NCBI GenBank assembly: GCA_043765375.1
Contig: JAYUJH010000008.1
Span: forward strand, 12,113-76,112
Direction: 5' to 3'
From: Alphaproteobacteria bacterium
Lineage (GTDB): Bacteria; Pseudomonadota; Alphaproteobacteria; Rickettsiales; UBA998
DNA: 64,000 nucleotides
Both the position numbers and the translations under genes were made by a program. Shown here piece after piece: positions 1-55,343 of the stretch. The notes under the pieces were generated by a model. It was not told where the DNA came from and did no database searches. It saw nothing but the letters and a program-made list of their open reading frames with translations. The stretch's first letter is position 1. The number at the start of each line of letters is the position of its first letter.

Positions 1-539
1 TTATAAATATATCCTTGCGGTATTGAATGCTTACCCGCCACCACCCGCACCCTATCAGGACGGAGCAAATGCAACTCTTTTGGTGGCTCATCACTCACGC
101 CAATTGCCAACACAAATGCGTCACCAGCGAGCAAATAATAACTGACCAACGCTTCCAAAAATTGATAATTCCCTTGAATTGGGTTAGGATTATGCAACAA
201 ATGTAACATTGGGTGCGTGTTCACTTCTGCCCGCACACCTGCATCATTTGATTGATAACCAAGAATTGTGCAATTCGCCACTCCCATCGCAATCATACTA
301 ACTGCACGATTTGCCACCACATTGCGCTTATATGCTTCATCAGCGAACTTGCGATAATCCCGCCCACTCCATACTGCATTTGCCGGTGATTGCATGAAAG
401 TTTGCAAACCAGAATACCAACTTGGCACCGCAGATTTGGCTTCACTAATATTATTTATTGATTGATTATCGTTTATTGATTGTTTTGCCACAATATTTTT
501 AGCAAAAACACTATTTACCTGCTTAATACTTGCTTTCAT
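1..539 (-). CDS. phage/GTA-type portal protein (HK97 family), N-terminal part; ORF continues past window start
   Basis: Open-ended, so absent from the ORF track. My translation from the ATG (rc of cat 537-539): MKASIKQVNSVFAKN...WSGRDYRKFADEAYKRNVVANRAVSMIAMGVANCTILGY...HPMLHLLHNPNP...FLEALVSYYLLAGDAFVLA...LHLLRPDRV. This is the pattern I associate with HK97-family portal N-termini (alphaproteobacterial GTA g3-like). Confidence 0.6.
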   Translation of the reverse strand, partial: MKASIKQVNSVFAKNIVAKQSINDNQSINNISEAKSAVPSWYSGLQTFMQSPANAVWSGRDYRKFADEAYKRNVVANRAVSMIAMGVANCTILGYQSNDAGVRAEVNTHPMLHLLHNPNPIQGNYQFLEALVSYYLLAGDAFVLAIGVSDEPPKELHLLRPDRVRVVAGKHSIPQGYIY

Positions 540-9557: not shown

Positions 9558-10499
9558 TTATTTCTCCAAACTCATCTTCCCAAGTGGGTGTTTTGTTTGC
9601 ACCAGTTTTTGCAAAGTATCACTTGGGATATGAGTATAAATCTGGGTGGTGGTGATGTTAACATGTCCAAGCAAAGTCTGAATGCTACGCAAATCTACGC
9701 CACGCTCCAGCAAATGGCTAGCAAATGAATGACGCAACGCATGAGGGTGAACCTTGTTTGCATCAACCCCCGCTTGCATCGCCGTTTTCTTAAGCAGTTT
9801 AGCAAACCCTTGGCGAGTAATATGCCCCCCTGCCCCATTTGAAGGAAATAAAAACGCCGTTTTTTGCATATCAATTTTGCTATGCTGCAAATGTTGTTGC
9901 AACGCCAGCCATGCCACATGATGCAACGGCACCAGCCTTTCTTTATTGCCCTTGCCAAGCACCGTTAATAACATTTGTTTGGGTGCATTAACATCACCTA
10001 TATTATTATTTGAAGTATTATTATTTAAGGCTCGTAAATTATTAGTTTTTAAGCTAACTAATTCTGAAATCCGAAGCCCGCCCGCATATAAAATATTTAA
10101 CATCGCATATATTCGTATGGCTGAAGCAGTTTGTTTGGTGGTGATTTCTGCCATAATCATTTTAATTTCTGTTGCACTCAAAACATCTGGCAATGTGCGC
10201 CTTTGCTTTGGTGCATTAAGTTGCTTGGTTGGATTATCAGGTCGTATTTCCTCCACATAAAGATAAGCGCATAATTGCTTAACGCTGCTTAATTTCCTTG
10301 CAATCGTTGAAGCTGCAAACATACCCGCCATGGATTTTATCCATGTTTCAATATGCGCCCGCTCAAAATTGTTCGCATCAATATGCTGGGGCAGTGAGGC
10401 AAAAAAATCGCATAAATCTCGCTGATAAGCCTCCGCCGTATTGCGAGATATACCCTTTTGTGCTGTTTGTTCTATGATGAAATCTTCAATTAAGTGCAT
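9558..10499 (-). CDS. xerD: site-specific tyrosine recombinase XerD (XerC/XerD family)
   Basis: HPHALRHSFASHLLERGVDLRSIQTLLGHVNITTTQIYTH catalytic region. N-terminal SRNTAEAYQRDL resembles XerD. Contains an Asn-rich insertion (NNNTSNNNIGD). Confidence 0.8.
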   Translation of the reverse strand: MHLIEDFIIEQTAQKGISRNTAEAYQRDLCDFFASLPQHIDANNFERAHIETWIKSMAGMFAASTIARKLSSVKQLCAYLYVEEIRPDNPTKQLNAPKQRRTLPDVLSATEIKMIMAEITTKQTASAIRIYAMLNILYAGGLRISELVSLKTNNLRALNNNTSNNNIGDVNAPKQMLLTVLGKGNKERLVPLHHVAWLALQQHLQHSKIDMQKTAFLFPSNGAGGHITRQGFAKLLKKTAMQAGVDANKVHPHALRHSFASHLLERGVDLRSIQTLLGHVNITTTQIYTHIPSDTLQKLVQTKHPLGKMSLEK

Positions 10500-11969: not shown

Positions 11970-12314
11970 ATGTTTGAACAAAAAGATACATTAATAATCT
12001 CCAAACAAGCCTTTATGCAGCGAATGCTTGGCTCTGGGTTCATTACATTAATCATGTTTTCAGGGTCACTATTGCTTGGTATTGTTGGGTATAGTTATTT
12101 TGAAAATATGAATTGGATTGATGGTTTGCTAAATGCTTCTATGATTTTGGGAGGAATGGGGCCTGTTGATGTGCTAAAAACTAACGGAGGCAAGATTTTT
12201 GCATCATTATATGCGATTTACAGCAGTGTATTTTTAATTATATGTGGAGGCGTGCTGATGGTGCCAATTTTTCATCGTATTTTACATCATTTTCATTCTG
12301 ATGGTGAAAATTAG
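11970..12314 (+). CDS. small 2-TM membrane protein with pore-loop-like segment
   Basis: 114 aa with TM1, then NWIDGLLNASMILGGMGPVD, then TM2. The layout is reminiscent of minimal ion-channel pore modules, but the selectivity-filter motif is degenerate. Confidence 0.45.
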   Translation: MFEQKDTLIISKQAFMQRMLGSGFITLIMFSGSLLLGIVGYSYFENMNWIDGLLNASMILGGMGPVDVLKTNGGKIFASLYAIYSSVFLIICGGVLMVPIFHRILHHFHSDGEN

Positions 12315-13619: not shown

Positions 13620-13712
13620 AATAAAACTGGCGATGACCCAAAGGTTAGCCACTCTGGCTGCTTCCTTCCAGACCTGACCAACTAAGCAACGCCTCTGCCC
13701 ACCACCAGCAAA
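13620..13712 (-). ncRNA. ffs: signal recognition particle RNA (4.5S RNA)
   Basis: The minus strand reads GCUGGUGGUGGGCAGAGGCGUUGCUUAGUUGGUCAGGUCUGGAAGGAAGCAGCCAGAGUGGCUAACCUUUGGGUCAUCGCCAG. It contains the conserved domain IV motif GGUCAGGUC(U/C)GGAAGGAAGCAGCC. The 5' CUGGUGGUGGG pairs with the 3' CCCAUCGCCAG-type end, and a U-run follows. Confidence 0.8.
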
Positions 13713-51540: not shown

Positions 51541-52104
51541 TCATTTAGATTGTCCTTTCATTCCATTCGTTCCCACTTTTGCTTCCGTTTTCACATTCTC
51601 AATTTTATTAAAATAATCAATCAGGCGCAAACGCAACTCCTCTGCCACCGCTTCAATCACCTGCTTTTTAGCATCTTTTCCCGCAACATAAGTGGAATAA
51701 TCCGCATTAGCGATGCTATAACTACTAAATCGCTCAAATGCACCTTGATTTTGCACCACTCCGTTTGCATCTAACAACTGATAATTTGCATTGCCAATCA
51801 CACGGTAACGCTGAGTTGTTCCATTTGATTCAATACTAAGCGGCAACACACTTAAACCTAAATTAGGAATAAGCACATATTTCGGTTGCGTCCCTTGTTG
51901 CGTATTTCCCTCTCCATGCAAATCAGCCCCACCACCAGCATAAATGGAATCCTCCAATGATGCTTTCAGCGTTTGCGCCTCACGGTTATCAGGGGCAGAT
52001 ATGCTAATATTTTGCAATTGAGTGCGCAACTGCCCCTGCTGATAGACGGGGGTGAACCCACATGCACCAACCATAAGCAATAGAATAATTAAAACCGCTT
52101 TCAT
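51541..52104 (-). CDS. lptE: LPS-assembly lipoprotein LptE
   Basis: 187 aa. Lipobox LLMVGAC-G. Position between leuS and holA, with a start overlapping the leuS stop (ATGA-type junction at 52101-52104). Confidence 0.7.
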
Positions 52105-55100
52105 GCTGCAACCACATTAACAATTTTTCCCTGCACACAAATAACTTTACGCACATTCAAGCCCTGCAAATGCTTCTGCACAGCGGGGAGTGCAAGCGCA
52201 CGGGATTCCAGCTCAGCGTTGGAGGTATCTTTTTTCACCTGCAAAGTTTCCCGTAATTTACCATTAATTTGCACCCCAATAGTGATTTCATCATCTGCTA
52301 GCACCGCCATATCAGCCACAGGAAATGCTTGCTGCACAACCAAACCCGCCTCACCAATCGCCACCCACATGCTTTCAGCCAAATGCGGCATGAAAGGGGC
52401 AATCAACAAAATCAAGTTCTTCAAGCCATGATGATATAAAACGGCTGCAACAGCATCGTTCAAATCTAGCTCATCAAGCGCATTGCTGCACTCACGAATG
52501 CTTGCTACCGCTTTGTTGAATTGAAACTGCTCAATCGCTTCACGCACTGCAATAATAGTTTTCTGCAACTGACGATAAACTGGCATTTGGCTTGAGGTAA
52601 GTTCGTTATAATCAGTGAAGATAACTCTCTTCTCCCCCTTCATTGCTACCGTTTCCATTGTTGCTGCCTCCTCCATTATTGGATTAGCTAGATTAGGGGC
52701 GACAAACTCCGCCCCCTCCACCCTTGCGGGGGAGGGCTGGGGTGGGGGGTTAAAGTTTAGTGGGGAGGAGTTTAATTGCGGGAGTTCTTCTCCCCTCTCA
52801 CTTTGGGAGAGGGGTTGGGGGTGAGGGGAAGCCCTCTCCTGCTTGAGGGAGAGGGTTGGGTGAGGGCAATGTTGCGCCACACGCCCCCCATCTTGCGCCA
52901 TGCGCCATAGGCGGTTCACATAACGCCATGCGCCTTCAATTCCTGCTTCCGTCCATTCCAAATCACGCTCGGGTGGTGAATCTGACATCATGAAAAGCCT
53001 GGCCGTATCCGCTCCAAACTTGGCAATAATCCCCCGCGGGTCAACGGTATTATTCTTGGATTTGCTCATTTTTTGCGTGCGCATAACGCTGACTTTTTCA
53101 CCCGACAAACTTACCCACTCACCATCTTCACCTCGCTTCACTTCTTCAGGGTAAAGCCATTTGCCGCTTAAATCTTGGTAAGTTTCATGTGTTACCATTC
53201 CTTGAGTGCGCAAGTTTTTGAATGGCTCTTGCACATCAACATAGCCAAGTTTTGCCAATGCACGAGTGAAAAACCTTGCATAAAGCAAATGCAAAACCGC
53301 ATGTTCAATTCCACCAATATAGCAATCAACGGGTAATAGTGCATTTGCCGCCTTCGCATCAATTCCACCTGCAAAATGCGGCGAACAAAATCTTGCAAAA
53401 TACCATGATGATTCAAAAAATGTATCAAATGTATCAGTCTCTCGCACCGCAGGTTTGCCACATTGCGGGCAATCAACATGTTTCCATGTTGCATGGTTAG
53501 CAAGTGGGTTGCCAACACCGTCAAAGCTCACTCCATCTTTGGGCAACTCAACTGGCAGTTGATCCTCTGGCACTGGCACAGCTCCGCAATCATCACAATG
53601 AATAATCGGAATTGGACAACCCCAATAACGCTGACGTGAAACTCCCCAATCACGCAGACGATAATTCACTTGACGAGTTCCCGCTTGCATTTCCTCTAAT
53701 TTTTTGATGGCTGCTTCTTTAGCATCTGCCACATTCAAACCATTTAAGAACTCAGAATTAATTAGCACTCCGTCACCCGTGAATGCTTCATGTGCAATAT
53801 CCACTCCCTCGCCTGCAACCCCCTCACTTTCAACCACGCGCTTAATCGGCAATCCATATTTGCTTGCGAACTCATAATCACGCACATCATGCGCAGGGCA
53901 ACCAAATACTGCCCCCGTGCCATATTCCATCAACACAAAATTAGCAATATATATCGGGTGCAACTCGCCATTAAATGGGTTTTGCACCTTAAGCCCCGTA
54001 TCAACCCCTAGTTTTTCGGCTTTTTCAATCGCCTCCTCACTAGTGCCAGACTTTGCACAATCCGCAATGAAATCCGCAATGGTAAAGTCACCCGCTGCCA
54101 ATTTTTCAGCGGATATTTTCTCAGCTAACGGGTGCGAAGATGCAATTGCCAGAAAACTCATGCCAAATAATGTGTCAGGACGTGTGGTATATGCTTTGAT
54201 AAAATTAGGGGGTAGGGTTGAGGGGGTAGGGTTTATTTGGCTTTCATCAACAGCGAACCCTAATTCATTCAGCCCCCACCCTAACCCTCCCCCATAAGGG
54301 GGGAGGGAACTTACATCTCGCTCAAATGCTAGATTTTGTTCTCCAACATAAGAGCCCTCGCCCAACCCTCTCCCCTTGGGAGAGGGGTCTTCCACCGCAC
54401 TCATTGCTACTCCCTCTCCCATTGGGAGAGGGTTGGGGTGAGGGTTAGATAAATGTGATTTGTGGGGATATTCCCCTCTCCCATCGGGAGAGGGGTTAGG
54501 GGTGAGGGCAGAAAGGTGAGTGGTGAGGGTTTCACCATTAATCTCAAACTCAATCACCGCACCGCTAGATTTACCAATCCAATTTTGTTGCATCAAGCGC
54601 ACTTTTTCTGGCCAACCATCAAGCTGTTGCAAGCCATCAAGCAAATCACCCGCAAAATCAGTGATACGCAAAAACCACTGGCTCAACCGCTTGCGTTCCA
54701 CCACCGCACCAGACCGCCACCCTTTGCCATCAATCACCTGCTCATTAGCAAGCACCGTATTATCCACAGGATCCCAATTCACCACACCTTCTTTGCGGTA
54801 AGCAATCCCCGCCTTCAACATGCTCAAAAAGAACCGTTGCTCATGTTGATAATATTCTGGGTCACATGTTGCAATTTCCCTGCTCCAATCATAAGAAAAG
54901 CCTATCATCTTCAACTGCTCACGCATTGATGCAATGTTGGAATATGTCCAATCAGCAGGGTGAATGCCTCTCGCTATTGCTGCATTTTCCGCTGGCAACC
55001 CAAATGCGTCCCACCCCATAGGATATAACACATTAAACCCGCAAGCTCGCTTGAACCTTGCAGTCACATCACCAAGAGTATAATTCCTAACATGCCCCAT

Positions 55101-55343
55101 ATGAATATTTCCCGATGGATACGGAAACATTTCAAGCACATAATATTTTTCCTTTGATGATTTCTCATCAGAATGTTTGTTGTTTGATGAACAATCATCA
55201 GAATGTTTGTTGTTTGATGAACAATCATCAAATGCAAAACACCCTTCAGCCTCCCACTTTGCTTGCCAATAAGCCTCAGATATAGAGGGTTCATATTGCG
55301 TTGTTGTGATAAAGTCTGAATTATTTTCTATTTTGTTTTCCAT
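52101..55343 (-). CDS. leuS: leucyl-tRNA synthetase, enlarged (1080 aa) by in-frame repeat insertions
   Basis: HMGHVRNY (HIGH), [10 protein letters not shown] (editing domain), KMSKS and C-terminal VQINGKLR. Two repeat-derived inserts and an N-terminal 30-nt duplication are present. Confidence 0.95.
52712..52866 (+). repeat. cluster of 3 GC-rich palindromic REP units inside leuS (C-terminal-domain insert)
   Basis: Units at 52712-52749, 52789-52828 and 52831-52866, of the form (C)CCTCTC(C/A)C-N4-GGGAGAGGG(G)TTGGG(G)GTGAGGG(G). Confidence 0.85.
54206..54529 (+). repeat. cluster of about 5 GC-rich palindromic REP units inside leuS (editing-domain insert)
   Basis: Units or half-units at 54206-54233, 54273-54307, 54355-54387, 54411-54447 and 54471-54508, e.g. 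CTCCCTCTCCCATTGGGAGAGGGTTGGGGTGAGGG. Confidence 0.85.

Follow-up and report, generated by a model that had tools for sequence, protein, structure and literature searches.

The window, the whole stretch of DNA analysed here, comprises 64,000 nucleotides (positions 12,113 to 76,112) of contig JAYUJH010000008.1 from an uncultured alphaproteobacterium of 41% GC, whose leucyl-tRNA synthetase (LeuRS) is 63% identical to the nearest named LeuRS among the matches listed (Alphaproteobacteria bacterium UBA1002). The leuS gene is an intact single open reading frame (ORF) at 52101-55343 on the minus strand. It encodes 1080 amino acids (aa) and hosts all copies of a short GC-rich repeat which, on sequence grounds, we assign to the BoxC / PIT / TM_ECO family of intrastrand-triplex motifs. 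A profile (nhmmer) built from the units themselves was scanned over the window and returned seven significant copies, all within leuS, with E-values from 6e-8 to 1e-3. These copies, the inserts that they occupy and the repeats found beside them are as follows.

52626-52892, minus strand: insert 2, about aa 818-906, anticodon-binding domain, loop connecting its first and second long helices; U1 to U3 and spacers
52712-52749, G-rich strand plus: unit U1, C-rich strand in sense, encoding 14 residues; subfamily variant like U5
52791-52828, G-rich strand plus: unit U2, C-rich strand in sense, encoding 13 residues
52831-52867, G-rich strand plus: unit U3, C-rich strand in sense, encoding 13 residues
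52869-52906, minus strand: imperfect duplication of 17-21 nt (RMAQDGG / RVAQHCP) that directly abuts U3
54207-54530, minus strand: insert 1, aa 272-379, in the beta-hairpin at the start of the CP1 editing domain; U5 to U8, remnants and spacers
54206-54233, plus strand: G-run repeat AGGGGGTAGGGTTG, 1.9 copies, the oldest part of insert 1, at its distal end
54272-54309, G-rich strand minus: unit U5, G-rich strand in sense, encoding 12 residues; subfamily variant CCCTCCCCC / GGGGGAGGG / GGGTGGGGG
54354-54388, G-rich strand minus: unit U6, G-rich strand in sense, encoding 12 residues; canonical in-frame TGA absent
54410-54445, G-rich strand plus: unit U7, C-rich strand in sense, encoding 12 residues; exact match to the TM_ECO pattern
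54472-54509, G-rich strand plus: unit U8, C-rich strand in sense, encoding 12 residues; perfect unit CCCCTCTCCC-ATC-GGGAGAGGGG-TTA-GGGGTGAGGG
54507-54529, plus strand: partial remnant of a G-rich tail, a run of GGGTGAG-like heptamers, from repeat finding
55165-55234, minus strand: 30-nt tandem repeat, 2.4 copies, encoding a 10-residue peptide, within a third, N-terminal variable insert before the HIGH motif; not a triplex-motif unit

The first-pass annotation of this DNA had described an intact 1080-aa leuS with two GC-rich unit clusters, and the ORF call and the profile search both bear this out. Its count of eight units has to be lowered to seven full copies, the eighth being represented by the partial remnants at 54507-54529 and 54206-54233. 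The first loop had been given as 4 nt, and a consensus of that form yielded 0 matches even with three mismatches, because the loop is normally 3 nt. The tripartite architecture is present in all seven units: out of 10 positions, 8-10 are Watson-Crick paired and 8-10 Hoogsteen-compatible. This pairing is perfect in U7 and U8 (U8, with 10/10 positions of either kind, also has the nhmmer E-value of 5.8e-8), and U1, U3, U5 and U6 are degraded. U5 is complementary to U1 (83% over 40 nt), and these two form a subfamily in which all three segments have changed in step, with C in place of T in the C-stem and G in place of A in both G-stems, so that an A.T*A triplet becomes G.C*G. Such a co-change of three segments, recorded here between just two sequence types, is as a three-strand constraint would predict. 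DNA fold prediction gives -9.9 to -11.7 kcal/mol for the hairpin part and leaves the G-rich third segment single-stranded. The units are, as had been noticed, richer in GC (64-82%) than the core of leuS (45%); insert 1 has 54% and the window 41%. The G-run repeat at 54206-54233 contains four G-tracts and is possibly quadruplex-prone, and the RMAQDGG / RVAQHCP duplication looks like a sign of slippage at the insertion site.

The product of leuS matches the Pfam families tRNA-synt_1, tRNA-synt_1_2 and Anticodon_1 (recorded for the identical product), and solved LeuRS structures in the PDB match it at E = 1.8e-246. It keeps all alignment columns that do not vary across 120 LeuRS sequences, among them HMGH at 81-84, KMSKS at 758-762, the zinc cysteines 583, 586, 625 and 628 and, in the TTRPDT editing motif, T387, R388, P389 and T391. 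The gene was found on four contigs from separate assemblies, with an identical 1080-aa product on three and a variant of 1070 aa on the fourth. One independent assembly (L333) has 0 differences to the window in leuS, and the assembly with the shorter product (L003) differs only by one copy fewer of the N-terminal 30-nt repeat. Relatives have unrelated inserts at this N-terminal spot.

All three reading frames are used by the units. The peptides read PSP..GRG in U8 and U6, PLP..GEG in U7 and LS..ERG in U2 and U3, in agreement with the earlier reading that the core is translated in three frames, and the C-rich strand is in sense orientation in five units and the G-rich strand in two (U5 and U6). 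One core that is read in three frames and in two orientations establishes an origin at the level of DNA, as had been proposed; a protein-level repeat is rejected, since the frames differ between units. The canonical unit of 36 nt corresponds to exactly 12 codons and is free of stop codons in five of six frames, or in four of six if the second loop is TTA. When the loop is TTG, the G-rich strand has a single stop, the TGA in GGGTGAGGG. When it is TTA, the TGA-bearing frame gains a TAG as well, and one of the frames on the C-rich strand gains a TAA. Both units with the G-rich strand in sense occupy the TGA-bearing frame and lack the TGA, U6 reading GAG and U5 TGG at that place. TGG is also found in the antisense unit U1, and the change in U5 may therefore be a trait of the subfamily and not a repair in place. 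The encoded peptides are rich in Pro, Gly, Ser, Glu and Arg.

The inserts were delimited, along the lines that the first-pass annotation had suggested, by aligning the window LeuRS with 14 and then with 119 relatives, and medians were taken over 121 LeuRS. The CP1 segment from WIGKS to TTRPDT measures 126 aa in the window against a median of 21, the C-terminal segment from the GAWRY helix to FNKAVA 132 aa against a median of 50, and the N-terminus before the HIGH motif is about 25 aa longer, which upholds the former estimate of some 200 extra residues. The clusters of four and three units add about 105 and 82 aa (~190 residues). Alignment with the LeuRS of Neisseria gonorrhoeae (6q89) proceeds in the blocks 47-271, 380-817 and 938-1078 and breaks exactly at the two clusters. 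An AlphaFold (AF2) model from 120 sequences reached a mean pLDDT of 79.5 and a pTM of 0.79 (a model from 15 sequences, with pLDDT 55, was not used), and its pLDDT falls below 50 only at residues 1-4, 284-373 and 830-905. No secondary structure is modelled in 284-373, between strand 258-268 plus helix 270-280 and strand 381-386, or in 830-905, between helices 799-825 and 920-938. Both inserts are thus placed, by the structural alignment and the model, in loops, one at the entry hairpin of the CP1 editing domain and the other within the anticodon-binding domain. An intein or a self-splicing intron is rejected: the product has Pfam matches to tRNA-synthetase and anticodon-binding families only, the AF2 model has no folded domain in either insert, and neither splicing domains nor catalytic RNA were found in the inserts (Rfam at the gathering threshold, Pfam on the product, AF2).

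Other lineages have received insertions in the same places. Among the 120 closest LeuRS, the relative P0023 carries a single unit, CTCCCTCTCCCTCAGGGAGAGGGTCGGGGTCAGGGT, at the CP1 site, where it is translated as LPLPQGEGRGQG, and P0015 has a related GC-rich insert there. A third relative, P0010, carries a different palindromic element of ~70 nt (CHSERSEES...KDPSA.PQDDN) in frame at both sites, in the same orientation and the same frame (contig L329, lines below). This recurrent use of the same two sites across lineages is strong evidence that they are permissive positions of LeuRS and that selection filters insertions to them, and they may well be the most insertion-tolerant positions of the enzyme.

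L329 4815-4900: palindromic element of P0010, in frame at one window LeuRS site
L329 6165-6250: palindromic element of P0010, in frame at the other window LeuRS site

The history of the C-terminal site can be followed in the nearest clade, P0002 to P0005, whose LeuRS are 83-86% identical to that of the window and 91-93% identical to each other in amino acid sequence. In P0003 a tandem of two perfect units, with a period of 40 nt, is accompanied by a decayed half-unit, and a tandem pair of this period is present in the window also. The units of P0003 and of the window share the exact position, after TG[TC]CC and before GAACTCC. The site is empty in P0002, P0004 and P0005, and P0003 is nested among these relatives, sharing a different CP1 insert with P0005. 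This nesting requires that precise loss recurred, that units were gained a second time at the same nucleotide, or that a short patch was exchanged. An ancestral protein insertion, which the first-pass annotation had named as the observation that would speak against it, should leave relatives with the same extra segments and no palindromic DNA; what was found is a perfect DNA signature in P0003 and empty sites in its nearest relatives. U2 agrees with the unit that P0003 has at this site in 36 of 38 positions (95%), and the 4-fold degenerate sites of leuS are only ~50% identical between P0003 and the window. Conservation so far above that of the 4-fold sites means that the units are young, that the structure of the DNA or RNA constrains them, or that they have been homogenised with other copies. 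Downstream of the P0003 units, about 50 nt resemble no relative's sequence, and the flanks of these units are hypervariable, a local instability that agrees with reports on such motifs in E. coli. The leuS of P0002 has a C-rich heptamer-like stretch homologous to 54206-54233, and this part of insert 1 accordingly predates the triplex units.

Further copies were sought within and beyond the window. None was found outside leuS in the window and its flanks of 9.4 and 8 kb (~81 kb in total), the flanks being drawn from other assemblies of this genome, which sustains and extends the earlier remark that no copy was seen in the intergenic DNA of the window. Among the matches listed, the neighbourhoods of leuS in 80 other alphaproteobacteria, 1.68 Mb in all, gave four hits, 0 of them in leuS. 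In the P0004 genome, gltB, the gene of the glutamate synthase large subunit, has two units in frame, which lie upstream of the Glu_syn_central domain's final part on a contig that ends inside the repeat. With these, 11 of 11 units in ~130 kb of the clade are in coding sequence (leuS and gltB). Searches of wider scope gave at least 120 matches to the broad pattern in IMG/VR and at least 120 matches to the exact master CCCCTCTCCC-N3-GGGAGAGGGG-TTN-GGGGTGAGGG in JGI metagenomes, and the 36-nt unit is, judged by sequence matching, cosmopolitan in metagenomes and phage contigs. On low-GC contigs the units lie within ORFs of at least 250 aa as often as random positions do (0.54 vs 0.51 and 0.56 vs 0.55), and on higher-GC and viral contigs they are depleted in ORFs. 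Nine of ten unit-bearing ORFs tested are genuine Pfam-domain genes. The genuine hosts include a kynureninase, a glycosyltransferase, helicases (one of them MrfA-like), an M20 peptidase, a zinc alcohol dehydrogenase, a HAD-family (P-type-ATPase-like) hydrolase and amidohydrolases; in two related genes of the last kind the unit occupies one and the same site but is read in different frames. The flanks of 287 copies show only two extra C at the 5' end (-1/-2) and a weak T at -3. A flanking direct repeat of at least 2 nt is absent in 251 of the 287, and no conserved termini lie outside the unit. With nothing conserved outside the unit and no target-site duplication, the repeat is a self-contained element of ~36 nt and not the core of a larger MITE (miniature inverted-repeat transposable element).

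L204 16403-16479: two units in gltB, in frame, P0004 genome
L268 748-781: unit in an amidohydrolase (dihydroorotase-like) gene from a metagenome, encoding 12 residues
L283 1146-1179: unit in a related amidohydrolase gene from a metagenome, same site, different frame, encoding 12 residues

The units had at first been treated as an anonymous repetitive extragenic palindrome (REP), a label now replaced by membership in the BoxC / PIT / TM_ECO family, to which both the pattern and the similarity to E. coli copies point. The TM_ECO motif was defined as 5'-CCCTCNCCC-N3-6-GGGNGAGGG-N3-GGGNGAGGG, with BoxC and PIT element as earlier names (Holder et al. 2015, PMC4666352). When one mismatch is allowed, U7 fits the published pattern exactly and U6 and U8 fit it with a second loop of 2-5 nt. 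The strict pattern has three matches in the window and 0 in 100 shuffles. In 3497 of the 5426 complete E. coli genomes, a match to U8 spans 37 of its 38 nt with an identity of 89%, and the E. coli copy that was checked is located in the hrpB-mrcB spacer. Rfam has no family for the units. The motif has 3610 occurrences in 262 proteobacterial genomes, G/C-rich triplex motifs abound in cyanobacteria, and an earlier study found the element also in Synechocystis and H. influenzae (PMC4666352 and study cited therein). In vitro, TM_ECO folded into an intrastrand triplex of the purine-motif type; no function has been demonstrated for it, it is associated with local instability of DNA, and its loci are reportedly prone to rearrangement in E. 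coli (PMC4666352). We found no account in the literature of this family within coding sequences and none specific to the encoded peptides.

The observations are probably best explained by insertion of the units at DNA level into permissive loops, followed by local expansion, with the frame kept by selection on an essential gene. In single-stranded DNA a BoxC unit would fold into a hairpin of the C-rich stem and its G-rich complement, onto which the mirror G-segment could fold back as a purine-motif triplex. Copies would have entered leuS at two places, and each cluster may then have grown locally by adjacent insertion, duplication or slippage. Since leuS is essential, only in-frame, stop-free arrangements would have survived, and survival is easy because the unit has 12 codons and is nearly stop-free. 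The insert peptides would be passive, disordered surface loops, and their neutrality, like the local expansion, is proposed here as the simplest reading of the pattern. Several results weigh against this explanation. Interspersion in the host genome is unproven from ~81 kb, and two independent founding events in leuS, which makes up 4% of that DNA, have a probability of ~0.002 by chance. No transposase, whether a REP-associated tyrosine transposase (RAYT) or another, is present among the called genes of the ~81 kb, where the sole recombinase is a XerC/D-like integrase (9558-10499); with no transposase, no target duplication and no conserved flank, insertion is inferred and not observed. The low pLDDT of the inserts is partly expected because the corresponding alignment columns are nearly empty. 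A simple model of neutral relics moreover fails, and recency, constraint or conversion must be added to it. The earlier proposal of a selfish element that has colonised surface loops accordingly holds for the loops, on the gaps in the alignment to solved structures (271/380 and 817/938) and on the pLDDT, and is not borne out for the mobile coloniser, of which neither a further copy nor a transposase was seen in the ~81 kb.

One possibility that deserves serious, if tentative, consideration is recent site-preferential insertion by an active element, whose units would still be generated or mobilised by a trans-acting system that leaves no target duplication and would have landed repeatedly at the same leuS positions in separate lineages. 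U7, U8 and the units of P0003 and L204 are perfect copies of the cosmopolitan master, the near-identity of U2 to its P0003 counterpart far exceeds that of the 4-fold sites, P0003 is nested among empty-site relatives at 91-93% aa identity, its left (TG[TC]CC) and right (GAACTCC) junctions are those of the window, and the amidohydrolases of L268 and L283 are occupied at one site in different frames. Against this, no mobilising gene lies nearby, no other copy occurs in the 81 kb, the 287 copies reveal no conserved target motif beyond the unit, and the common right flank fits common descent or allele exchange equally well. The broader proposition that the 36-nt unit is a coding-compatible mobile element, actively and site-preferentially colonising genes across phyla, is doubtful; were it true, the near-perfect conservation would reflect ongoing activity or a three-strand structural constraint, and filled and empty pairs of leuS (P0003 vs P0005, the window vs P0004) would be snapshots before and after insertion, from which the way this family spreads might be read. 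Another view, that the units are old relics of an ancestor rich in copies, whose intergenic counterparts were purged from an AT-rich compact genome, seems rather unlikely. Under it the copies in the gene would remain since no deletion other than a precise in-frame one is viable, and their triplex or hairpin sequence would be kept by structural constraint or gene conversion. The intragenic location of all 11 units in the clade, the C-terminal pair with both junctions common to lineages 85% identical in protein and the degraded state of U1, U3, U5 and U6 would all follow; neutral decay, however, should have erased 36-nt units at such divergence, at least two precise losses are required in the lineages of P0002, P0004 and P0005, and the CP1 cluster is not common to the sister clade.

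The stretch of ~50 nt downstream of the P0003 units, unlike both P0005 and the window though the genes are 90% identical, raises the question of whether GC-rich segments were acquired as patches by recombination or repair templated on foreign DNA, either another leuS allele or an unrelated locus, and not unit by unit. The rearrangement-prone nature of triplex-motif loci in E. coli (PMC4666352) and the inter-unit spacers, which have no identified origin, are in line with this, but the core of leuS is vertically consistent with its relatives, synteny is kept and no donor was found, and we consider it unlikely. An adaptive role, as a flexible linker that tunes editing or tRNA binding or as mRNA hairpins that pause translation at domain boundaries, is very improbable. 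Both sites do lie at domain boundaries, the predicted mRNA hairpins of the inserts are strong compared with shuffles (z = -6.9 for insert 1 and -3.5 for insert 2) and the units are conserved above neutral expectation. The peptides nevertheless vary with frame and orientation, close relatives lack the inserts, the same unit occurs in unrelated proteins, and PIT elements showed neither promoter nor terminator activity in E. coli (PMC4666352). Cosmopolitan repeats can break or mis-join metagenome assemblies, and contig L204 ends inside a unit, yet an artefact of assembly or annotation, or a decaying pseudogene, is scarcely credible for a gene that recurs in frame in four assemblies, with seven units in frame and all invariant LeuRS residues kept.

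The surroundings of leuS are ordinary. The gene lies between exbB/exbD-like genes and lptE-holA, with housekeeping neighbours; exbB-exbD is upstream in all close relatives, and lptE is downstream in the window genome and in the more distant P0023 and P0010. The only Rfam match in the window is the small RNA of the signal recognition particle (SRP). Genes for a phage portal, an S78 protease and a major capsid protein are found just upstream of the window start (window 1-539; L332 6457-9923), and this cluster could be a gene-transfer-agent-like or prophage remnant. An ORF of 860 aa has no Pfam family on record and is conserved on seven contigs. Downstream of exbBD lie genes for an N6/N4 DNA methyltransferase and for a SocA/Panacea-domain protein, together with a small ORF and a dCTP-deaminase-like gene, and these may form a small defence or toxin-antitoxin-like islet.

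13621-13711, minus strand: bacterial small SRP RNA, Rfam RF00169, 49.5 bits
30258-32840, minus strand: ORF of 860 aa
57600-60100: the putative islet

BoxC / PIT / TM_ECO repeats are abundant, near-identical across distant bacteria and have until now been described as intergenic (PMC4666352). That they can sit in frame in essential proteins links them to the phenomenon of the Rickettsia palindromic elements (RPEs). To judge from its coding sequence, seven copies have added ~190 residues to LeuRS without breaking the gene. The record is one of insertions filtered by selection, and together with the empty sites in close relatives it makes mechanism and age inferable. The two loops of LeuRS tolerate large insertions and would be useful for engineering or tagging the enzyme. 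For annotation, peptides of the PSPxGRG, PLPxGEG and GLGVR types in predicted proteins are to be regarded as repeat-derived.

Compared with the known members of their family, the units in leuS share the tripartite sequence, the TTA/TTG second loop, the occurrence as singles and inverted pairs and the unstable flanks. They differ in being all in-frame and coding, whereas 23 of 23 copies in E. coli K-12 are intergenic (PMC4666352), and in being clustered, with seven in one essential gene in the ~81 kb, whereas the E. coli copies are dispersed. The host differs too, being an uncultured alphaproteobacterium of 41% GC, where the described hosts include E. coli, Enterobacter and cyanobacteria. An intergenic location is a habit of the E. 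coli copies and lies outside the sequence definition of TM_ECO. The family has been known since the 1990s, and its means of spread was unidentified in the 2015 study (PMC4666352). Enterobacterial RU and ERIC MITEs resemble the units as small non-autonomous repeats with open frames that can be intragenic (Delihas 2007, PMC2759123). A MITE, however, is 100-170 nt long and carries terminal inverted repeats as well as target-site duplications (PMC2759123); neither of these two features was seen for the present unit, and a MITE is therefore rejected. Intragenic REPs with GTAG or CGTC tags are also short GC-rich hairpins within known genes, single, dimeric or grouped; they add 20-30 aa, and their presence in proteins of modular build was interpreted as neutral (Di Nocera et al. 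2013, PMC3733652). The units of the window differ from these in having no tag, no nearby RAYT, a third segment and bigger clusters, and a RAYT-mobilised REP or REPIN is rejected on the absence of a GTAG/CGTC tag and of a RAYT in the ~81 kb.

The parallel with RPEs that the first-pass annotation drew is sound with regard to behaviour. In both cases palindromic elements sit in frame within functional genes, many of them essential, of an alphaproteobacterial host, and extra surface peptide away from catalytic sites is, as far as the model places it, tolerated. RPE-1 has a length of roughly 100-150 nt. RPEs are described as a feature of Rickettsia, with RPE-1 as a longer palindromic insertion (PMC3733652), and the window unit, which has 36 nt, no conserved flanks and a third mirror segment and is cosmopolitan, is set apart from them by this description. 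The units in leuS behave like RPEs and like intragenic REPs and are probably members of neither family.

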